Shown piece by piece: positions 18,914-29,723 of a stretch of DNA of 64,000 nt. The notes under the pieces were generated by a model that saw only the letters and a list, made by a program, of their open reading frames with translations, searched no databases and had not been told where the DNA came from. Origin of the DNA: Acidovorax sp. (GTDB taxonomy: Bacteria > Pseudomonadota > Gammaproteobacteria > Burkholderiales > Burkholderiaceae_C); the NCBI RefSeq assembly GCF_046294525.1, contig NZ_JBKBKQ010000001.1:231263-295262 (forward strand), in the 5' to 3' direction. The translations under genes and the position numbers were made by a program. Every line of letters begins with the position of its first letter. The first letter of the stretch is position 1.

Positions 18914-18988
18914 CTCCTCGTAGTTCAATGGATAGAACGAGTGCCTCCTAAGCGCTAGATACAGGTTCGATTCCTGTCGAGGGGACCA
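18914..18988 (+). tRNA. tRNA-Arg (anticodon CCT)
   Basis: 75-nt cloverleaf folded by hand: acceptor CTCCTCG/CGAGGGG, D-arm GTTC-AATGGATA-GAAC, anticodon arm AGTGC-CTCCTAA-GCGCT, T-arm ACAGG-TTCGATT-CCTGT, discriminator A, encoded CCA. Confidence 0.8.
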
Positions 18989-18997
18989 GATTTATGG

Positions 18998-19057
18998 TCA
19001 AAATGGCCTCTAGCGCTTATTGGATAAGCGCTAGCAGCTATCAAAACAGTAGTATCC
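18998..19057 (+). repeat. copy B of ~55-60 bp palindromic repeat family (CTAGCGCTTAT-TGG-ATAAGCGCTAG perfect palindrome)
   Basis: Lies immediately 3' of tRNA-Arg and upstream of hsdM; aligns with the copies at 8787, 26281, 44668 and 50490. Confidence 0.6.
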
Positions 19058-19149
19058 AAAGAAGAAGCAACCCCGTGGCAGGGTCTTCGCAGTGTGTGCG
19101 GCGGGCCTGCCCGCTTGACGGCCCCTTGCAGGCCACACACCGCAGCCAC

Positions 19150-20775
19150 ATGCTCCAAGACATCCAGAAAACCCTGTGGGCCACCGCCGACAAGCTGCGT
19201 GCCAACATGGACGCCGCCGAATACAAGCACCTGGTGCTCGGCCTCATCTTCGTCAAATACATCTCTGACACCTTTGCCGCCCACCACGCCACGCTGGTGC
19301 TGCGCCTGGCAGACCCCAACGACGAATACTTCTACGGTGACGCCGACCCCGCCGACATAGCCGCCGAGCTGGAAGACCGTGACTACTACAAGGAAGCCAA
19401 CGTCTTCTGGGTGCCCGAAGCCGCCCGGTGGGAGCAACTGCGCAGCAGCGCCAAGCAGCCCGACATTGGCAAACGCATTGACGACGCGCTGACGCTGATC
19501 GAGGCCGAGAACCCCACGCTCAAAGGCATCCTGGACAAACGCTACGCCCGTGCACAGCTGCCCGACGGCAAACTGGGCGAGCTGGTCGATTTGGTGTCAA
19601 CCATCGGCTTTGGCGACACCCCCGACGTGGCCCGCGACACCCTGGGCCAGGTGTACGAATACTTTCTGGGCATGTTCGCCAGCGCCGAAGGCAAACGCGG
19701 CGGGCAGTTCTACACGCCCGCCAGCATCGTCAAAACCCTGGTGGCCGTGCTCAACCCGCACACCGGCAAGGTGTACGACCCGTGCTGCGGCAGCGGCGGC
19801 ATGTTTGTGCAGAGTGAGAAGTTCATTGAGGCACACGGCGGCAAGAAGGGCGACGTCTCCATCTACGGGCAAGAGAGCAACCCCACCACCTGGCGCCTGG
19901 CCGCCATGAACCTGGCCATTCGCGGCATCGACTTCAACCTGGGCCGCGAACCCGCCGACACCTTTGTGCGCAACCAGCACCCCGACTTGCGCGCCGACTT
20001 CATCCTGGCCAACCCGCCCTTCAACATCAGCGACTGGTGGCACCCCAGTTTGGAGGGCGACGCCCGCTGGGTGTATGGCGACCCACCCCACGGTAACGCC
20101 AACACCGCCTGGCTGCAGCACATGCTGCACCACCTCAAAGCCACGGGCCGTGCGGGCATCGTGCTGGCCAACGGCAGCATGAGCAGCAGCCAGAACAACG
20201 AAGGCCAGATCCGCGCCGCCATGGTCGATGCCGACGTGGTGGAAGTGATGATCGCCCTGCCCGGCCAGCTGTTTTTCAACACGCAAATCCCGGCGTGCCT
20301 GTGGTTTTTGGCCAAAAGCAAGAAGCGCAAGGGCGAGGTGCTGTTCATCGACGCCCGCAAGCTCGCCACCCCTATCAGCCGCGTGCAGGGCGAGCTGACC
20401 GACGAAGTCATCGACCGCATCGCCGCCACTGTAGCCGCCTGGCGCGGCGAGCCCGCACCCACCGTCATCACGCCCTCGTCCTCGTCCACCCCAAACCCCG
20501 TTCGGGCTGAGCCCGTCGAAGCCCACCCCCACCCCACCCCCTACCAGGACATACCCGGCTTCTGCCGCAGCGTGCCCCTGGCCGAGATCGCCCAACACGG
20601 CCACGTACTCACCCCCGGCCGCTACGTGGGCGCCGAGGCGGTGGAGGACGACGACGAAGCCTTTGCCGACAAGATGGTGAAGCTGACGGAAAAGCTGGGT
20701 GAGCAGATGGCCAAGGGCGCGGAGCTGGATGCGGTGATTCGGCAGAAGTTGGGGGGGTTGGGGTATGAGTTCTGA
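19150..20775 (+). CDS. hsdM: Type I restriction-modification N6-adenine DNA methyltransferase subunit HsdM
   Basis: HsdM N-terminal domain ([32 protein letters not shown]), SAM-binding motif (DPCCGSGGM) and catalytic NPPF (LANPPFN). Confidence 0.9.
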
Positions 20776-22015
20776 GTGGCCTCAAGTCTCACTTCGAGAG
20801 TTTGCAGATCTACTCGCTGGGTTCGCATTTAAAAGCAGCGGCTACACAGACGACTCCTCGGATGTTCGACTCCTTCGAGGAGACAACATCGCACCCGGCC
20901 AAGTCCGGTGGGATGGTGTAAAGCGGTGGCCCAAAGCTCCGGCTCTCACACTGTCGAGATATCGCTTGGAACCCGGCGATGTCGTGCTCGCTATGGATCG
21001 ACCGTGGATACCCGCTGGTTTGAAGGTTGCGCAGGTTACCGAAACCGACACGCCTAGCTACTTGGTACAGCGCGTTGCTCGCCTTCGTACAACTTCACGA
21101 GAGGATCGCAGCTTTCTATTTGCGCTCTTATCAACGACAGATTTTGAGTCGTACATCCAGAACGCGACTACTGGAACAGCCGTTCCTCACATCAGCGCCA
21201 AGCAAATACTCGACTACAAATTTAATCTTCCACCAGCGACTGTACGAACTGGAATCGGCGCTCTCGCAGCTGCACTTAACGACCGCATCACCCTCCTGCG
21301 CGAAACCAACGCCACGCTCGAAGCCATTGCCCAGGCGCTGTTCAAGTCGTGGTTTGTCGATTTCGACCCCGTGCGCGCCAAGATGGAAGGCCGTGCCCCC
21401 GAAGGCATGGACGAAGCCACCGCCGCGCTGTTTCCCGATGCGCTGGAGGAGTCGGAGTTGGGGGAGGTGCCGAGGGGGTGGCTACCCGTTCGACTGAACT
21501 CGTTTTTGGAGCTTGCTTACGGGAAGGCACTCAAAGCAGAAAACCGCAACCCCGGTCCAGTGCCTGTGTATGGGTCTGGCGGAATTACGGGGTGGCACGA
21601 CACGCCGCTGATTGATAGCCCGTCGATCATCGTCGGCCGTAAGGGCACAGTTGGAAGCCTCTACTGGGAGAGCCGCCCGTTCTACCCAATCGATACGGTC
21701 TTTTACGTGAAGTCCAAGTGTCCGTTGACGTATTGCCACCAGCTTTTGAAGACTGTGGGTTTGCATGACATGAATACCGATGCAGCGGTCCCTGGGTTGA
21801 ACAGAGAAAACGTCTATCGCTTGCTGGTTCCAGATGCCCCTGCAAACGTTCTCGCAGCGTTCGATGCGTCGGCCAACGCATTGAGAAACAGCATCGACCA
21901 AAACGAAGCCCAAGCCCAAACCCTCTCCACCCTCCGCGACACCCTGCTCCCCCACCTGATCTCGGGCCAGTTGCGCTTGCCCGAGTCGCAGGCCGCTATG
22001 AAGGACGCGTTATGA
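20765..22015 (+). CDS. hsdS: Type I R-M specificity subunit HsdS
   Basis: 416 aa with two target-recognition domains separated by conserved repeats; both TRD regions are visibly lower in GC; overlaps the hsdM stop. Confidence 0.85.
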
Positions 22016-22713
22016 CCGAACGCATCCACATCTATTGCGACGAGTCGTGCCATCTGGAAAACGACCACATGCGTGCGATGGTGCTGGGCGCCGTGTGGTG
22101 CTCGGCGTCGCATCGGCAGTCGCTGGCAGACAAGATCAAACGCTTGAAAGCAGACTACGGTTTGCCAGCTCAGTTTGAAATCAAGTGGGTGAAGGTGTCA
22201 CCCGGAAAATTGCCGTTCTACCAAGCGTTGCTGGACTTGTTTTTCGACGAACCCTTGCTGCATTTCCGAGGATTGGTGGTGCCAGATAAGGGGGCCTTGG
22301 ATCATGGCCGTTTTTCCCAAAGCCATGACGATTTCTATTACAAGCAGTGGTACACGCTACTCAATCGACTGATCGACCCGAGCAACCGATACCGCATTTT
22401 TCTGGACATCAAGGACACACGCGGCCAAGCCAAGGTGCGCAAGCTGCACGATGTGCTGTGCAACGCCAACTATGACTTCGACCGCAATGTGATCGAGTCG
22501 ATCGAACTGGTGCATTCGCACGATGTGCTGCTACTCCAACTGGCAGACCTGCTGATTGGTGCGCTGGCGTATGTGCACCGGGGTTTGCACGGCAGCCCGG
22601 CCAAGCTGGCGCTGGTGGCGCATCTACGGCACCGCTCGGGCTTGCGGCTGGAACAAAGCTCACTGCTGCGGGCAGACAAGTTCAATCTGTTCATCTGGAG
22701 GCCGCAGTCTTGA
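22012..22713 (+). CDS. DUF3800-like protein embedded in Type I R-M locus
   Basis: 233-aa ORF beginning [15 protein letters not shown]... (the IYxDES motif is typical of DUF3800); GC is lower than its surroundings; ATGA start/stop overlap with hsdS. Confidence 0.55.
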   Translation: MTERIHIYCDESCHLENDHMRAMVLGAVWCSASHRQSLADKIKRLKADYGLPAQFEIKWVKVSPGKLPFYQALLDLFFDEPLLHFRGLVVPDKGALDHGRFSQSHDDFYYKQWYTLLNRLIDPSNRYRIFLDIKDTRGQAKVRKLHDVLCNANYDFDRNVIESIELVHSHDVLLLQLADLLIGALAYVHRGLHGSPAKLALVAHLRHRSGLRLEQSSLLRADKFNLFIWRPQS

Positions 22714-22715
22714 GC

Positions 22716-23216
22716 ATGCCGCCACCTTTGATGCCATTCAGTGGGGATGACGACTGGGCCGACTATGAAGATGCCATTTACGAGGTGTACTTGCAGACGG
22801 TTGCACATGCTCAGCTCACGTTCATGGGTGCCCCGGTCAAAGTGCGCTTTATGCCGACCACCAAACACAAAGGCTACGGGTTTTGGCACTTGATCTCTGA
22901 AGCACCCGACCAGGACAACCGGAATGAAGATGACCGCGTACCTGACCTGCGCCGATGCGAGCGGGTGCGCTGGGTGGCATGGTGCATTCAGAATGCAGGC
23001 AAGACGGGGTTTTCGTGGTGGGAAAACGACCGCAAAGGTCAAACCCATGTGGTCATATGGGCCGAGGAGCACGACTATGCGGTGATGCTGGGCAAGCGAA
23101 ACACGCCAGAAGGAGTTCGCTTTTATTTGCTCAAGACCGCCTACTGCCTGCGGTCACACAACGTACGCCGCTTTGCCAAGGAACGCGATGCGTATTGGGC
23201 AAGCCAGAAAGACTGA
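22716..23216 (+). CDS. hypothetical protein (166 aa) co-transcribed with DUF3800-like gene
   Basis: Its ATG lies 3 nt after the DUF3800 stop; moderately low GC; no recognisable motif. Confidence 0.4.
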   Translation: MPPPLMPFSGDDDWADYEDAIYEVYLQTVAHAQLTFMGAPVKVRFMPTTKHKGYGFWHLISEAPDQDNRNEDDRVPDLRRCERVRWVAWCIQNAGKTGFSWWENDRKGQTHVVIWAEEHDYAVMLGKRNTPEGVRFYLLKTAYCLRSHNVRRFAKERDAYWASQKD

Positions 23217-23391
23217 AGCCCCGGCACACGGATGTGCAAGGGCTTCGGATACTCCTTCTACACGTGGTAGATGAGCTGGGCTGATTGTAGCGGTGCAAGC
23301 AAATCAAGGCATTCCGAATGTTGTATTACCCACAAAAAGCGAAAAGCATACTGGCGGCGCGGGGCCGCTGCTGGGGAGTTGCCTGTGGGGC

Positions 23392-23453
23392 TCCGAACAT
23401 TCGCAGCTGAGGTCCGAACATTTACAGCTCAGCTCCGAACATTCGCAGATACC
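23392..23453. repeat. 3 tandem ~21-bp direct repeats (TCCGAACATTCGCAGCTGAGG-like)
   Basis: Read directly in the AT-richer intergenic region upstream of fic. Confidence 0.6.
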
Positions 23454-23620
23454 AAAAGCCGCGCGATGCCGAGAATCTCCGGCCACTTGCGCTTGTCCGA
23501 GGCGCAGGCGCTAATCAACGCGGTTTGAAACTGAACAGCTATGAAAGTGGTCTTTCACAGCGGCCCGACCTTTAAAGAGTTCTTTCACAGCTTGCCGGAC
23601 GACAAGCTGGGCGTCGCTGA

Positions 23621-23651
23621 CATGTATAGAAATCCGCGTTTTCTATACATG
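23621..23651. promoter_or_regulatory. perfect 12-bp inverted repeat CATGTATAGAAA-N7-TTTCTATACATG (candidate operator upstream of fic)
   Basis: Read directly; a second AAATCCG(C/T)GTTTT motif repeats ~25 bp downstream. Confidence 0.4.
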
Positions 23652-23764
23652 TCGCAGTCCACATGCTTAAAAATCCGTGTTTTTTGTACAGATGCTGGCT
23701 AACATGGTGAAGCCATTGCGTTTTTTCGCCATGTTTCCCCCTCCCCCACTCTGGATGCACCGGC

Positions 23765-24841
23765 ATGCCTTTTGACCGCAGCCAACCCCACAACGACCTG
23801 CCCCTGCTGCCGCCCGCAGTAGAGCTGGAGAGCAAGGCTGTGCTCAAGCAGGCGATTGCGGCCAACCGGGTGCTGGCCAACCTGCGCGGGCTGGCGGCGC
23901 AGATTCCGAACCAGGGCGTGCTGATCAACAGCATCGTGCTGCAGGAAGCGCGCTTGTCGTCGGAAATTGAAAACATCGTCACCACCAACGACGAGCTGTA
24001 TCGCGCCGACGCGGACGCTGACGGCAAGGCCGATGCCCATACCAAGGAGGTGTTGCGCTACCGCGAGGCGCTCTACCACGGCTTTGCCGCGCTGAAAGAC
24101 CGCCCTTTGAGCACCAATCTGTTCATAGAGATAGCCCAGCGCATCAAGCAGATGGATTTGCAGGTGCGCGCCGTGCCCGGCACGGCTTTGAAGAATGAGC
24201 GGGGCGAGGTGGTGTACACGCCGCCTGTGGGCGATGCGGTGATTCGCGACAAGCTGTCCAACCTTGAAAAGTTCATCCACGCCGATGACGACCTCGACCC
24301 GCTGGTAAAGATGGCGGTCATGCACTACCAGTTCGAGGCGATTCACCCGTTCCCGGATGGCAACGGCCGCACGGGGCGCATCCTGAACCTGCTGTTTCTG
24401 GTGGAAAAGGGCTTGCTGGACATTCCGGTGATGTTCCTGTCGCGCTACATCATTGCCCACCGTGCGGCCTACTACGAGGGTTTGCGCCGGGTGACGGAAG
24501 AGCAGGACTGGGAGAACTGGCTGCTTTACATGCTGCGTGCGGTGGAAAGCACGGCTCAGCAGACGTTTGATCAGGTCAACCGCATCCGTGACTTGATGGA
24601 GCAGGTGCGCGAGCGTGTGCAGCGCGAAGCGCCTGGCGTGTACAGCAAAGACCTGATCGAGGTGATCTTCAAGCAGCCCTATACAAAAATCCAGTTCGTG
24701 GTGGACGCTGGCATTGCCAAACGGCAAACCGCGTCCGGTTACCTGCAAACCCTGGCGGGCCTGGGCGTGCTGCGCGAAAGCAAGCACGGGCGCGAGAAGT
24801 ACTACATCAACGACGCCTTGTTGGCAGAGCTGGTGGGTTGA
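23765..24841 (+). CDS. fic: Fic/Doc-family protein (AMPylation-type Fic)
   Basis: Canonical Fic motif HPFPDGNGRTGR, sitting between hsdS and hsdR, which is a well-known association. Confidence 0.85.
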   Translation: MPFDRSQPHNDLPLLPPAVELESKAVLKQAIAANRVLANLRGLAAQIPNQGVLINSIVLQEARLSSEIENIVTTNDELYRADADADGKADAHTKEVLRYREALYHGFAALKDRPLSTNLFIEIAQRIKQMDLQVRAVPGTALKNERGEVVYTPPVGDAVIRDKLSNLEKFIHADDDLDPLVKMAVMHYQFEAIHPFPDGNGRTGRILNLLFLVEKGLLDIPVMFLSRYIIAHRAAYYEGLRRVTEEQDWENWLLYMLRAVESTAQQTFDQVNRIRDLMEQVRERVQREAPGVYSKDLIEVIFKQPYTKIQFVVDAGIAKRQTASGYLQTLAGLGVLRESKHGREKYYINDALLAELVG

Positions 24842-24921
24842 CCATATGGTGATGGCATCGACAGATCACGATAACTTGTCGATTTTCTTTGTTTTTTTAA
24901 ACATATTCTCCCCATCTGTCG

Positions 24922-27900
24922 ATGGCATCGACACATCCGCCACCTCTCAGCCCCGGACCTGACCGCATGACCGAAGACCAGCTCGAACGCGAAACCCTGG
25001 CCTGGCTGCAGGACGTGGGCTACACCCACATCGCCGGTCCCGACATCGCCCCCGACGGCCCCGCGCCCGAGCGCAGCGACTACCGCCAGGTGCTGCTGGC
25101 AGGCCGCCTGAAGGCAGCGCTGATGCGGCTGAACCCTGCCGTGCCCGTGGTGGCCATCGACGACGCGCTGGCGCAGGTGCAAGACCTGGGCGTGCCCGCG
25201 CTGCTGGCGGCCAACCGACGGTTTCACCGGCTGCTGGTGGCGGGCGTGCCGGTGCAGTACCAGCGCGGCAACGAGACAGTGGGCGACTTCGTGCGCCTGG
25301 TGGACTGGGCTGCGCCCGAGCGCAATGAGTGGCTGGCGGTGAACCAGTTCAGCGTGCGCGGGCCGCGCCACACGCGCCGGCCCGACGTGGTGCTGTTTGT
25401 GAACGGCCTGCCGCTGGTGCTGCTGGAGTTAAAAAACCCCGCCGACCAGGCCGCCAGTGTGTGGAAGGCGTACGACCAGATCCAGACGTACAAAGAGCAG
25501 ATCCCGGACCTGTTTAACACCAACGAGGTGCTGGTGATTTCAGACGGCACCGAGGCACTGCTGGGGTCGCTGAGCGCAAGCGCCGAGCGCTTCATGGCGT
25601 GGCGCACGATTGACGGCGTGGCGCTGGACCCGCTGGGCCAGTTCAACGAGCTGCAGACACTGGTGCGCGGCGTGCTGGCGCCGCAATACCTGCTGGACTA
25701 CCTGCGCTACTTTGTGCTGTTTGAGGACGATGGGCAGCTGGTCAAAAAGATCGCGGGCTACCACCAGTTTCATGCGGTACGCGCCGCCATTGCGCAGGTG
25801 GTGGCTGCTGCCACGCCGGGCAGCGGCGCAGACCCGGCCATCAAGGGCAAGGGCGGCGTGGTGTGGCACACGCAGGGCAGCGGCAAGAGCATCACCATGA
25901 CCTGCTTTGCCGCCCGCGTGATGCAGGAGCCCGCGCTGCAGAACCCCACCATCGTGGTCATCACCGACCGCAACGACCTGGACGGCCAGCTGCTGGGCGT
26001 GTTTGGCCTGGCGCAAGACCTGCTGCGCGAGCAGCCCGTGCAGGCCCGCACCCGGCAAGAGCTGCGCACGCTGCTGGCCAACCGCCCCTCGGGCGGCATT
26101 GTGTTTGCCACCATCCAGAAGTTCATGCCCAGCGAGGACGAAGACAGCTACCCCATGCTGTCGGACCGCCACAACATCGTGGTGATTGCCGACGAGGCGC
26201 ACCGCACGCAGTACGGGTTTGAGGCGCGACTGAAGGTGCGCAAGGCTGATGTGAAGGCCGATGGGAAGGAAGATTTCAAGCCAAATCAGGCTATAGCGCT
26301 TGATACACAAGCGTCACCAGCTACAAATAATGTAGCAAACCCCATCGCCACAGGCAGCGGCACCGCCCCCGCACACCGCGCCGAATTTGCGCCGCCCACC
26401 TACCGGGCAGGCACCGAAGCGAACACAGTGGAACACGCCCGCGAGCATTACCAGGTGGGCTACGCCCAGCACCTGCGCGATGCTCTGCCCAACGCCACCT
26501 TTGTGGCGTTTACCGGCACCCCGGTGAGCGGCACCGACCGCGACACGCGCGCCGTGTTTGGCGACTACATCCACGTGTATGACATGCAGCAGGCCAAGGA
26601 AGACGGCGCCACCGTGGCCATCTACTACGAAAGCCGCATGGTGAAGCTGGGCCTGAAGGCCGACGAGCTGCCCAGCATTGACGCCGAGGTGGACGAGCTG
26701 GCCGAGGACGAAGAAGAAAGCGTGCAGTCGCGCCTGAAAAGCCGCTGGGCGGCGCTGGAGCAGGTGGTGGGCGCCGAGCCCCGCGTGGCGCGCGTGGCGC
26801 AGGACCTGGTGGCGCATTTTGAAGAGCGCAACACCGCCCAGCTCGGCAAGGCCATGGTGGTGGCCATGAGCCGCGACATCTGCGCGCACCTGTACAACGA
26901 GATCGTGCGCCTGCGCCCCGACTGGCACAACGCCGACCCCGAGCTGGGCGCCATCAAGATCGTGATGACCGGCAGCGCCAGCGACAAAGCGCTGCTGCGC
27001 CCGCACATCTACAGCGCGCAGGTGAAAAAGCGGCTGGAAAAGCGCTTCAAAGACCCGGCCGACCCGCTGCGCATCGTGATCGTGCGCGACATGTGGCTGA
27101 CCGGCTTTGACGCGCCCTGCGTACACACCCTGTATGTAGACAAGCCCATGAAGGGCCATAACCTGATGCAGGCCATTGCCCGCGTGAACCGCGTGTTCAA
27201 GGACAAGCAGGGTGGCCTGGTGGTGGACTACATCGGCATTGGCAACGAGCTGAAAGCCGCCATGAAGGAATACACCGCCGCCCAAGGCCGGGGCCGCCCC
27301 ACGGTGGACGCGCACGAGGCCTTCAGCGTGGTGCTGGAAAAGCTGGATGTGCTGCGCGCCCTGCTGCACGGGTTTGACTACAGCGGCTTTCTGACGGGCG
27401 GCCACCGCGTGCTGGCGGGTGCTGCCAACCACGTGCTGGGCCTGCCGCGCCAGGCCGGGCAAGACGGCAAAAAACGGTTTGCCGACACTGCCCTGGCGAT
27501 GAGCCAGGCCTTTACCCTGAGCTGCACACTGGACGAGGCGAAGGGCGTGCGCGAGGAAGTGGCCTTCATGCAAGGCGTCAAGGTCATCCTGACCAAGCGC
27601 GACATCACCGCCAAGCAACGCACCGACGAGCAGCGCGAGCTGGCAGTGCGCCAGATCATCAGCCATGCAGTGGTGTCTGAAAGTGTGGTGGACATCTTTG
27701 ACGCCGTGGGGTTGGAGAAGCCCAACATCGGCCTGCTGGACGAAGGCTTTCTGGCCCAGGTGCGGGCGCTGCCCGAACGCAACCTGGCGGTGGAGTTGCT
27801 GGAGCGACTGCTGGAGGGCGAGATCAAGAGCCGCTTTGCCAGCAACGTGGTGCAAAGCAAAAAGTTCTCGGAGCTGCTGGGCGGCGTGATCGTGCGCTAC

Positions 27901-28296
27901 CAGAACCGCAGCATTGAAACCGCCCAGGTGATGGAAGAACTGCTGGACATGGCCCGCCAATTCCGCGAGGCACATGGTCTGGCCGACAAGCTGGGGCTGA
28001 GCGAAGACGAGGTGCGCTTTTACACCGCGCTGGCCGAGAACGAATCTGCCGTACGCACGCTGAGCGACGACACGCTGAAAAAAATCGCCCACGAACTGAC
28101 CGACAACCTGCGCAAAAACCTGACGGTGGACTGGACCGAGCGCGAGAGCGTGCAAGCCAAGCTGCGCCTGATGGTCAAACGCATCTTGCGCAAGTACAAA
28201 TACCCGCCGGACCTGGAAGCTGCAGCGGTGGAGCTTGTGCTGCAACAAGCGCAGGCATTGGGTGAAGAGTGGAGCGAGCTGGCTGCAGCGGTCTGA
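24922..28296 (+). CDS. hsdR: Type I R-M endonuclease/helicase subunit HsdR
   Basis: SF2 helicase motifs (GSGKS, DEAHRTQ, FTGTP); the start may be the second Met at 24967; it contains an unusually long low-GC insertion between DEAH and the FTGTP motif. Confidence 0.9.
26281..26340 (+). repeat. degenerate in-frame copy C of the ~55-60 bp palindromic repeat inside hsdR
   Basis: CAAATCAGGCTATAGCGCTTGATACACAAGCGTCACCAGCTACAAATAATGTAGC aligns with copy B; there is a local GC dip. Confidence 0.45.
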
Positions 28297-28378
28297 ACAA
28301 ACCGACACAAAAAACACCCTCTGTCGTTTGCCACACACCACGCTTGCAATTGGTGACAAACGAACACATTGACATGAT

Positions 28379-28882
28379 ATGTCGATGCACCTATTCTCCC
28401 GATCCATGCAGGCACACGGACTTTCTCCCGGCCGCCTGCCCCACCCGCACGACGAAGGAGACGCCGTGGCCACTTTGCTGGAACAACTCAACAACCTGGA
28501 CGTGCTGACTTCGGCACTCATGGGCGGTGTGGCGGTGCAGTTGCAGCCGATTGCGGGCGATGTGCCCGTGGTGCAGGTCAGCATTGAGGGGCGCGATGAG
28601 CTGCCCATCTTCGTGACCTGCTCGGACATGCAGATGATCTGCCTGTGCTACCTGTGGACCGATGCCGATGTGCGGCCCGAGCGCCGGGCCGAACTGATGG
28701 AGGCGCTGCTGGACCTGAACCCTTCCGTGCCCCTGTCGGCCTTTGGCCGCGTGGATGGCCGCTTTGTGCTGGTGGGCGCCCTGGCCCGCGCAGCGCGTGC
28801 TGAAGACGTGGCGCACGAGGTGGCCGTGCTCAGCGACAACGCGCTGGATGCGCTGGATGCGCTGGCGGAATTCCTGCATTGA
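28379..28882 (+). CDS. YjfI-like (DUF2170) or YbjN-type chaperone-like protein
   Basis: 167 aa, acidic, lying immediately upstream of a PspA-family gene as in the enterobacterial yjfI-yjfJ arrangement; the family assignment is from memory. Confidence 0.45.
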   Translation: MSMHLFSRSMQAHGLSPGRLPHPHDEGDAVATLLEQLNNLDVLTSALMGGVAVQLQPIAGDVPVVQVSIEGRDELPIFVTCSDMQMICLCYLWTDADVRPERRAELMEALLDLNPSVPLSAFGRVDGRFVLVGALARAARAEDVAHEVAVLSDNALDALDALAEFLH

Positions 28883-28961
28883 ACAGGCGCCCCGTCATCC
28901 CCGCTTCTTCCTCTTCACACCGTTTCGGTCCCGCAATTTTCGACATTGACAGGAGAACACC

Positions 28962-29723
28962 ATGTCGGTCATCAAGAAACTCGTCACCCTGCTGCGCGGC
29001 AGCGCCCGCGAACTGGGCCAGAGCGTGGTCGATGGCAACGCCACGCGCATTTATGAACAAGAGATCATCGACGCCAAGGCCAGCATCGCCGAAGCGAAGA
29101 CCGAACTCACCGGTGTGATGGCCAAACAGATGCAGACGGCGCGCGACATCGAGCGCATCAAGGGCGACATGCTGCGCCACGAAGACATGGCCGTGCAGGC
29201 GCTGGACAAGGCTAACGAAGGCCTGGCGCTGGAAGTGGCCGAGCGCGTGGCCGGCCTGGAGGCCGAGCTGAACGAGCAGACGCAGGCCCACGCCAGCTAT
29301 GCGATGCAGGTGTCGCGCCTGAAGGACCTGATCCGCAGCGCGGAAGGCCGTGTGCGAGAGCACGAGCGCGAGATCGGCATTGCCAAGACCACCGAGAGCG
29401 TGTACCGCGCCACGCAGAGCATCTCTGAAAGCATCGGCGCCACGGGTTCGCAGCTGACCAGCGCGCGCGATTCGCTGGAGCGCATCAAGAAGCGCCACGA
29501 AGACCTGGCCGACCGCATGGCCGCCGCCGAGCAGCTGGACCAGGAGTTCGGCCACCGCGCGCTGGAGCGCAAGCTGGCAGACGCGGGCATTGGCGACAGC
29601 GACAAGGTGCGTGCCGCCAAGGTGATGGAGCGCCTGCGCGCCCGCCAGGCCGGGGCTGCCGCTGCAACCACCGCCGCCGCCCCCCACGCGCTGCCCTCCC
29701 CCACGCCCACACAGGCCCCATGA
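28962..29723 (+). CDS. PspA/IM30 (ESCRT-III-like) family protein, YjfJ-like
   Basis: 253 aa, all coiled-coil, with a PspA-like N-terminus (MSVIKKLVTLLRGSARELGQSVVD) and an Ala/Pro-rich tail. Confidence 0.8.
   Translation: MSVIKKLVTLLRGSARELGQSVVDGNATRIYEQEIIDAKASIAEAKTELTGVMAKQMQTARDIERIKGDMLRHEDMAVQALDKANEGLALEVAERVAGLEAELNEQTQAHASYAMQVSRLKDLIRSAEGRVREHEREIGIAKTTESVYRATQSISESIGATGSQLTSARDSLERIKKRHEDLADRMAAAEQLDQEFGHRALERKLADAGIGDSDKVRAAKVMERLRARQAGAAAATTAAAPHALPSPTPTQAP

Follow-up and report, generated by a model that had tools for sequence, protein, structure and literature searches.

The window considered here, a stretch of 64,000 nucleotides from an Acidovorax species (contig NZ_JBKBKQ010000001.1, positions 231,263 to 295,262 of the forward strand), contains a Type I restriction-modification (R-M) operon in which two small protein genes, termed here gene A and gene B, stand between the specificity gene hsdS and the restriction gene hsdR, together with a predicted small RNA gene that is convergent with gene B. 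The three R-M subunits are all present with their characteristic Pfam domains. The methyltransferase gene hsdM (19150 to 20775, plus strand; N6_Mtase 2e-102, HsdM_N 3.2e-21) lies in an open reading frame (ORF) that is open from 18994, and the frame and the onset of the Pfam domain place its likely start at the Met at 19150; hsdS (20765 to 22015, plus strand) matches Methylase_S in two stretches; and hsdR (24922 to 28296, plus strand) matches HSDR_N, SWI2_SNF2, ResIII, T1R_D3-like and T1RH-like_C. Between them lie gene A (22012 to 22713, plus strand; 233 amino acids), gene B (22710 to 23216, plus strand; 168 amino acids), the small RNA gene (23207 to 23277, minus strand; predicted product about 71 nucleotides, indicated by a covariance model, covariation and fold) and a SoFic-type fic gene (23765 to 24841, plus strand). 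An ORF check confirmed the two reading frames that the original prediction had placed between hsdS and the fic and hsdR genes.

The predicted coupling of the pair to the R-M operon is also borne out, as the ATG of gene A overlaps the stop codon of hsdS in the sequence ATGA (22012 to 22015). Both genes are, as had been noted, lower in guanine plus cytosine (GC) content (0.560 each) than hsdM (0.646) and hsdR (0.650), within a flanking genome of 0.73, and hsdS is equally low (0.569). At third codon positions (GC3), the values of 0.63 to 0.73 for hsdS and genes A and B, compared with 0.82 to 0.87 for hsdM, hsdR and fic, define a single lower-GC block within the operon. On these values, hsdS and the A-B cassette appear to have arrived together in an operon of mosaic origin.

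Gene A had been described as DUF3800-like, and the resemblance is stronger than that wording implies, with a full-length match to PF12686 (57.4 bits versus a gathering cut-off of 21; profile positions 1 to 148 of 149). An N-terminal DE and a C-terminal QxxD motif have been described for this family (PMC7736814), and gene A has both, as D10-E11 and Q176-xx-D179. Across 39 homologues D10, E11, D132, D135, Q176 and D179 are invariant, so that the DE...D...QxxD set is intact, and the modelled fold is RNase HII/H2-like, that is, of the RNase H-like type. Neither protein of the pair is covered by an NCBIfam model, and a search of Protein Data Bank (PDB) sequences with profiles of A and B gave no match. 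Proteins of the DUF3800 family have been linked to 11 structured RNA motifs (PMC5737381), to type VII retrons (PMC7736814) and to Cas12a2/a3 loci (PMC10910872, PMC13594972).

The start of the second gene is most probably the TTG at 22710, which overlaps the stop codon of gene A as TTGA, since homologues align from this point, a GGAGG lies 8 nucleotides upstream and an identical metagenome contig was independently called as 168 amino acids. Thus, the tight coupling originally predicted for this gene holds, while the predicted length of 166 amino acids corresponds to an ATG at 22716. Its product has no Pfam or NCBIfam match, and it matches PHROG 16230, labelled "replication protein" (8.1e-29). 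The family consists of stand-alone proteins of about 160 amino acids in 973 clusters at 50% identity; among 121 diverse members H60 is invariant, and R76, R82, C83, R85, W59, W88 and W104 are conserved at 90 to 98%. The AlphaFold2 model has a mean predicted local distance difference test (pLDDT) score of 89.9. As a Foldseek search of gene B against the PDB gave no match, the label of a RelE-type RNase was not applied; membership of the BECR-fold RNase toxins (RelE, colicin D/E5, CdiA-CT) is no more than a possibility, and an RNA-binding or RNase role for this protein is a lead rather than a result.

Although the pair had been called uncharacterised, it is already catalogued, as PDC-M04 in PADLOC, and it is homologous to the rlfA and rlfB genes of phage P1. 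Both proteins match their PADLOC models end to end: gene A matches the PDC-M04A model PDLC04353 (E 2.6e-91; residues 1 to 232 to positions 1 to 229 of 232) and gene B the PDC-M04B model PDLC04357 (E 1.7e-51; residues 3 to 167 to positions 5 to 161 of 162). No match to a housekeeping family was seen with Pfam, PADLOC or NCBIfam, the two proteins matching only candidate-defence models. The PDC systems were predicted by guilt-by-embedding in BREX, DISARM and Type I R-M loci (bioRxiv 10.1101/2024.01.29.577857), and the window agrees with PDC-M04 in having the two genes adjacent, in the same order and in one of the types of context from which these systems were derived. The literature searched yielded no report of phage-defence testing of PDC-M04, and from its sequences the A-B pair is a candidate phage-defence pair. 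Where the window differs from the catalogue is in the small RNA gene, which is not among the searchable models; these define two proteins only.

That RNA gene requires revision of the view that the locus holds a two-gene unit, as it forms a conserved third part in 60 of 61 loci that carry gene B. The 60 to 75 nucleotides after the stop codon of gene B are 82 to 97% identical as DNA in almost all loci, even where the B proteins are only 30 to 50% identical, and an alignment of 54 distinct copies yields two hairpins. Compensatory changes are found in 14 of the 20 base pairs, and 97.6% of the alignment cells are paired, compared with 40 to 57% in controls in which the partners were slid, and the observed values were not attained in any of 500 shuffles. 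The signature is strand-specific, with 98 G·U cells and 97.6% pairing on the minus strand versus 3 G·U cells and 88.6% pairing on the plus strand. Three other explanations of the conserved segment were considered and rejected: an element of the 3' untranslated region on the plus strand, which is disfavored by the G·U count and pairing of that strand just given; a small ORF placed after the GAAGGAG motif, where the alignment has no start codon; and a hammerhead ribozyme suggested by GAUGAG, the region matching no Rfam ribozyme family.

The layout of the RNA reads 5'-AG CUCAUCURCCAnGyGYAGAAGGAG yAUCC, followed by a terminator hairpin and a U-tract. A conserved 5' hairpin formed by the segment from CUCAUC to GAAGGAG is thus joined through a short linker to a GC-rich, covarying terminator hairpin, after which the U-tract overlaps the stop and last codons of gene B (a conserved QKD end). 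In nearly all loci a -10-like hexamer lies 9 nucleotides before CUCAUC, in many of them with TTGAC(A) 17 to 18 nucleotides further upstream, and the conserved AG before CUCAUC is likely to be the transcript start. In the window, the covariance model R1 matches at 23205 to 23285 on the minus strand (91.2 bits, E 3e-25), the sole full-length copy; the minimum free energy fold has the same two hairpins (-30.8 kcal/mol, z -4.35), and a putative -10 box, TACAAT, can be read at 23284 to 23289 on the minus strand. We infer both ends of the transcript and its expression from sequence, the predicted product of about 71 nucleotides running from about 23277 to 23207. The RNA gene abuts the stop codon of gene B in all of the 61 B-carrying loci, that of P1 included, except one in which the contig ends.

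No family in Rfam 15 accounts for this RNA, either at E values up to 10 (island and three short windows) or at gathering score (20 loci). The region gives a weak minus-strand match to sar RNA (22.9 bits versus a threshold of 43), and the remaining output of Rfam scans around the small RNA loci consists only of tRNA and chance microRNA matches. Likewise, literature searches on the sequence of the RNA and on small RNAs of yonN/yonK found nothing relevant. Structured RNAs beside DUF3800 genes are known as the DUF3800 RNA motifs I to XI, which occur on either side and either strand of the gene and several of which have Rho-independent terminators (PMC5737381). That a DUF3800 gene should be accompanied by a structured RNA with a terminator is a general theme that has been known since 2017. 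The small RNA differs from these motifs in that none of the DUF3800 families of Rfam 15, including DUF3800-I, -VIII and -IX, matches it, in a comparison made at the level of Rfam families only; the DUF3800-VIII consensus looks unrelated. What appears to be new is this RNA itself, its obligatory link to the RlfAB/PDC-M04 pair, that of P1 included, and its wide distribution as a solo element in phages.

How far the module recurs was surveyed with a profile of gene B, which retrieved 60 loci from one-genome-per-species contigs of Beta-, Gamma- and Alphaproteobacteria, Nitrospira, Chloroflexi, bacteria of the candidate phyla radiation, Verrucomicrobia, a member of the Lachnospiraceae and a Thermoplasmatales archaeon (one archaeal metagenome-assembled genome, MAG). 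Homologues of gene A in these loci are 42 to 98% identical and those of gene B 24 to 90% identical, and gene A lies directly 5' of gene B in 55 of 57 evaluable loci. HsdS is encoded upstream of the pair in 33 of 38 loci and HsdR downstream in 42 of 52; the pair is flanked by both in 29 of 34 evaluable loci and by neither in the other five, so that the recurrence inside other hsd loci on which the original prediction depended is found. A single locus has the order hsdM-A-B-hsdS-x-hsdR. The five free-standing loci adjoin integrases, a serine recombinase, a DUF927 protein or mnmE/mnmG, three of them being beside integrase or recombinase genes. The three parts of the module are inherited together across bacterial phyla, in the archaeal MAG and in phage P1.

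The cassette accompanies at least three divergent Type I backbones, and it is often more conserved than the backbone around it. At locus L008, A and B are 86% and 73% identical, compared with 48% for HsdM and 52% for HsdR, while locus L031 shows the opposite, with the backbone more conserved than the cassette. Because the identities of cassette and backbone diverge in this way, the cassette has evidently moved between Type I families and yet come to occupy the same slot. Recurrence across phyla and across several backbones thus supports the notion of a conserved, mobile and tightly coupled cassette. Decayed copies also occur: at L045 (4909 to 5271) gene A has been lost and gene B is truncated, and at L028 (5132 to 5653) no homologue of gene A was detected upstream of gene B; both retain an intact small RNA gene (92.1 and 93.7 bits). 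On a Gracilibacteria contig, the module has a LOOT RNA (Rfam RF03000, 89.9 bits) at a distance of 2.5 kb (L051, 4960 to 5077).

Such persistent embedding invites a comparison with nuclease genes that guard a restriction enzyme. The prrC gene lies between hsdS and hsdR of its Type I system, EcoprrI, and the present module resembles it in placing an extra, here predicted, nuclease gene in that position. In the manner of PrrC or Ronin, A and B would be held latent in an HsdMS or HsdMSR complex and freed once the enzyme is blocked by a phage anti-restriction protein (Ocr, ArdA or Stp-like), with the RNA as an additional brake. Translational coupling of the pair to hsdS, its location between hsdS and hsdR and the persistence of this embedding over divergent Type I families, including those of loci L047 to L055, L059 and L060, all fit this explanation, and there is a precedent for R-M-linked suicide effectors set off by anti-restriction proteins (bioRxiv 10.1101/2023.04.06.535777). 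It nevertheless seems unlikely. HsdMS is no obligatory partner, because the module occurs without adjacent hsd genes in five of the 34 evaluable loci, in phage P1 and in 11 of the viral contigs listed, and locus L045 retains an intact hsd operon after the loss of gene A. Moreover, A and B have no homology to PrrC, RloC or RonA, no ABC-type ATPase or anticodon-nuclease domain was found in either with Pfam, NCBIfam or PADLOC, and unlike PrrC they form a unit of two proteins and an RNA that is also found without hsd genes.

Phage P1 provides the best-known relative of the module. RlfA is 47% identical to gene A (BLASTP 8e-81) and RlfB 37% identical to gene B (1e-33), and searches of phage records with tblastn identify both P1 rlfA/rlfB and P7 rapA/rapB as homologues of the pair. 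The P1 genes have the same order and the same 4-nucleotide overlap, with the same small RNA gene downstream on the opposite strand (76.9 bits). Their surroundings differ, as they stand in the lytic-replication region behind the C1 operator, after kilA-repL/oriL, with no hsd genes nearby. A homologue of gene B is also carried by plasmids, in 102 records that come mostly from E. coli and are presumably P1-like.

The position of rlfAB in P1 and their annotation as "possibly associated with lytic replication" raise the question of whether an RNase H-type enzyme and an RNA might process primers or R-loops for a mobile element, the location in hsd operons being incidental. With this would agree the RNase HII-like fold modelled for gene A and the label of PHROG 16230, but that label is positional only. 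Further arguing against a replication role, rlfAB is non-essential for P1, as judged by CRISPR interference (PMC10695390), and in P1-like plasmids it is swapped for other cargo (PMC6906374). The loci whose neighbours were examined are chromosomal R-M operons, and no origin or replication initiator was noted adjacent to them, although no search was aimed at these. A role in replication is accordingly regarded as very improbable.

Viral genomes carry the RNA far more often than the pair. A scan of viral contigs with a DNA core pattern of the small RNA, for which far fewer than one chance match is estimated in about 10^11 bases because the pattern specifies 20 bases, found it in at least 120 contigs. 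Genes A and B stand beside it in 11 of the 120 contigs listed, convergent in eight and co-directional in three, and in the other 109 it is solo, without A or B, 27 of these copies lying no more than 1 kb from tRNA genes. Among the matches listed, the solo copies match the whole model at 34 to 66 bits and have their own promoters and terminators, sometimes in tandem, and no recurrent partner protein was found among their neighbours. A scan of viral contigs with protein patterns from the B profile gave no match, these patterns being subfamily-specific, and among 50,697 phage records an A-type DUF3800 gene was detected in only 11, which include no SPbeta-like phage. Cultured phages with the small RNA include 22 SPbeta-like Bacillus phages, in which it lies between yonN and yonK, two Vibrio phages, and P1 and P7. 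In one SPbeta-like viral contig (L067, 3299 to 3545; the yonN-yonK interval of SPBc2), two tandem copies are followed at about 100 nucleotides by a DUF3800-VIII RNA (Rfam, 44.7 bits), and a scan of eight neighbouring ORFs detected no DUF3800 domain.

These solo copies bear on the nature of the element itself, which could in principle act as folded single-stranded DNA, marking the 3' end of the cassette in the manner of an integron attC site and mediating insertion into hsd operons and phages. Folded DNA tolerates G·T pairs too, the element does lie at the 3' boundary of a cassette that has clearly moved between hsd backbones, and it keeps its structure despite variation in the sequence of the second hairpin. 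A DNA site of this kind would leave unexplained the constant spacing of the -10/-35 pair and the purine start seen in most loci, the U-tract behind the 3' hairpin on the same strand and, among the matches listed, the solo copies with their own promoters, in tandem inside phage tRNA clusters. As no recombinase is consistently adjacent either, this explanation is considered extremely improbable.

The orientation of the RNA relative to its neighbours is also informative about a possible regulatory role within the R-M operon. In relatives without fic, only 85 to 250 nucleotides separate gene B from hsdR, about 72 of which are the RNA gene, and since this leaves little room for an hsdR promoter past the RNA gene, the hsdR mRNA probably contains the complement of the RNA. 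The RNA could thus be antisense to a read-through transcript 5' of hsdR and, with A and B as nucleases, tune or delay the production of HsdR, for example on entry into an unmethylated host. Such a regulator is quite improbable given that the module occurs without hsdR in P1, in genomic islands and in viral contigs, that the RNA can be co-directional with A and B and that fic and a 548-nucleotide spacer stand between the RNA and hsdR in the window. Nor would pairing in cis require the extreme conservation of sequence seen in the 5' hairpin.

The explanation favored here, tentatively and at somewhat less than an even chance, is that of a toxin-antitoxin-like abortive-infection system that is held in check by its RNA and to which phages carry the RNA as an antidote. 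On this analysis, the Type I R-M operon would house a mobile module of three parts: a predicted RNase HII-like nuclease (A), a small Arg-, Trp- and His-rich protein (B) translated from a shared hsdM-hsdS-A-B message, and a convergent RNA of about 71 nucleotides with its own promoter and terminator. The invariant 5' hairpin of the RNA would be bound by A, by B or by both, and the nuclease thereby kept silent. Infection would lower or displace the RNA, for example through shut-off of host transcription or RNA decay, and the freed RNase H-fold enzyme would then cut nucleic acid and stop the infected cell or the phage. Solo copies in phages, often found in clusters of tRNA and small RNA genes, would act as antidotes, and embedding between hsdS and hsdR would allow the module to be expressed and transferred together with restriction, as a second layer. 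This embedding would not be required for function, given the copies in P1 and on islands without hsd genes.

One argument for a toxin and its antidote is an asymmetry in occurrence. Where the downstream sequence is readable, gene B is never found without the RNA, whereas the RNA is found without A or B in 109 of the 120 viral contigs listed, as would be expected of a toxin and its antidote. The co-directional arrangement in three of the 11 viral loci listed favors a protein-binding role in trans over a purely cis-antisense one. Likewise, as antisense pairing in cis would by itself place no constraint on sequence and is impossible in co-directional loci, the invariant 5' hairpin is probably a protein-binding site. 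Further support may be seen in the decayed modules L045 and L028, which still keep the RNA, and in the SPbeta-like phages that carry tandem copies of it beside a DUF3800-VIII RNA.

Several observations weigh against this explanation. The position of P1 rlfAB behind the C1 operator in the lytic replication region, together with the dispensability of these genes, fits a defence role for the prophage poorly. The solo RNA could do something for the phage that has nothing to do with A or B. In the window the -35 element of the small RNA is poor, and simple scans for promoters and terminators call neither signal. Finally, the peptide patterns used in the survey came from a close subfamily, and the frequency of hsd embedding that they returned may be inflated.

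Comparison with characterized systems places the module near, and outside of, two known classes. In type III toxin-antitoxin systems, typified by ToxIN, a nuclease is checked by a small RNA, and phages that carry pseudo-ToxI escape from the system. The logic proposed here is the same. The small RNA differs from ToxI, which is an upstream array of tandem repeats, in being a single-copy gene with its own promoter, downstream of the protein genes and usually convergent with them. Neither protein has homology to ToxN or AbiQ, and the only PADLOC models matched by A and B were those of PDC-M04. Type VII retrons likewise combine a DUF3800 protein of RNase H2-like type with a structured non-coding nucleic acid in a tripartite, defence-type unit (PMC7736814), but the retron-linked clade lacks the Q of the QxxD motif, which gene A keeps (PMC7736814). 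No reverse transcriptase was found by Pfam among the seven proteins of the hsd locus and sampled neighbours, a search that did not extend to other short ORFs, and no retron RNA was found with Rfam.

Other features of the operon appear to have histories separate from that of the module. The Fic toxin-like gene that had been noted downstream of the pair encodes a SoFic-type protein, with the Fic_N, Fic and SoFic-like_C architecture in Pfam and a match to the PADLOC SoFic model (2.7e-123); the NCBIfam model NF046030 scores 510 bits, under its cut-off of 550. A fic gene occurs between gene B and hsdR in just 9 of 46 related loci, and by this comparison SoFic is a separately catalogued defence gene inserted between the A-B module and hsdR. 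The spacer between gene B and fic (23217 to 23764, 548 nucleotides) had been described as AT-rich with tandem repeats. It does contain a tandem repeat (23390 to 23448; 2.8 copies of a 21-bp unit, family D2, from Tandem Repeats Finder (TRF) and a repeat search), while its GC content of 0.536 is low only relative to the flanks at 0.73. Because the gap between gene B and hsdR in relatives without fic is so short, the 21-bp repeat is assigned to the fic insertion and not to the A-B module. The spacer also holds a perfect 13-bp inverted repeat (23620 to 23652; ACATGTATAGAAA, 7 nucleotides, TTTCTATACATGT) about 112 nucleotides 5' of fic and a second repeat pair (23544 to 23561 and 23574 to 23591), which may be regulatory sites for fic.

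A 26-nucleotide direct repeat (85% identical; 24842 to 24867 and 24912 to 24937) carries the opening codons of hsdR (ATGGCATCGACA...) in duplicate, one copy lying just past the fic stop codon and the other at the real hsdR start, and it looks like the scar of insertion of a fic cassette at the 5' end of hsdR. At locus L002 (4505 to 6884), the 5' end of hsdR is partly duplicated, and this duplicate is followed by an insertion of about 2 kb and then by the full hsdR gene. As this insertion shares sequence with the spacer in the window (83% identity over 127 nucleotides to 23352 to 23473, a segment containing the 21-bp repeats), the interval from the small RNA gene to hsdR seems to be a hotspot where insertions recur. 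Within HsdR, a low-complexity insertion at residues of about 437 to 505 (window about 26226 to 26448) splits the SWI2/SNF2 motor domain, the Pfam match falling in two stretches; this segment aligns in L001 and L002 and is absent or unalignable in L003, L004, L007, L019, L021 and L045. Past hsdR (28379 to 29723) lie a gene for a DUF2170 protein with a weak match to the BacA biofilm regulator and then an ORF of 253 amino acids.

The hsd island as a whole (18914 to 28400) begins right after a tRNA-Arg(CCU) gene at 18914 to 18988 on the plus strand (ARAGORN; Rfam tRNA, 61.5 bits), which lies directly 5' of the operon. Past this gene the GC content falls from 0.73 to about 0.6, the island having values of about 0.55 to 0.65 in a genome of about 0.73. 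A search around the island for an att-like direct repeat of the 3' end of the tRNA gene found none, and no integrase was seen there.

DUF3800 proteins are often encountered in defence islands, retrons and CRISPR loci, and eleven DUF3800 RNA motifs have been described since 2017, for none of which was an assigned function found in the literature. The present module offers a compact and conserved case, with two proteins and a 71-nucleotide RNA, that is found in the well-studied phage P1 and, as the RNA alone, in SPbeta, so that the role of the RNA is open to the genetics of E. coli and B. subtilis. Even if the RNA should not be an antidote, the annotation of P1 rlfB as a "replication protein", whose basis is positional only, would be corrected. 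If it is an antidote, a new class of RNA-antitoxin defence would be defined, one reason for the presence of small RNA genes in phage tRNA clusters would be explained, and the definition of PDC-M04 in defence-annotation tools would need an RNA component. A broader generalization, possible though doubtful, is that modules of the RlfA/RlfB type (PDC-M04) act as ribonucleoprotein systems of immunity or addiction whose obligatory RNA, absent from Rfam 15, is the antidote to an RNase H-fold nuclease. Phages, among them SPbeta-like Bacillus phages, some Vibrio phages and the viruses of more than 100 uncultured contigs, would then have captured this RNA and set it among their tRNA and small RNA genes as an anti-defence factor. 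Were this true, the DUF3800-VIII neighbor in SPbeta-like phages would hint that DUF3800 RNA motifs serve, in general, as antidotes within a large, unrecognised family of defence systems built from a nuclease and an RNA.

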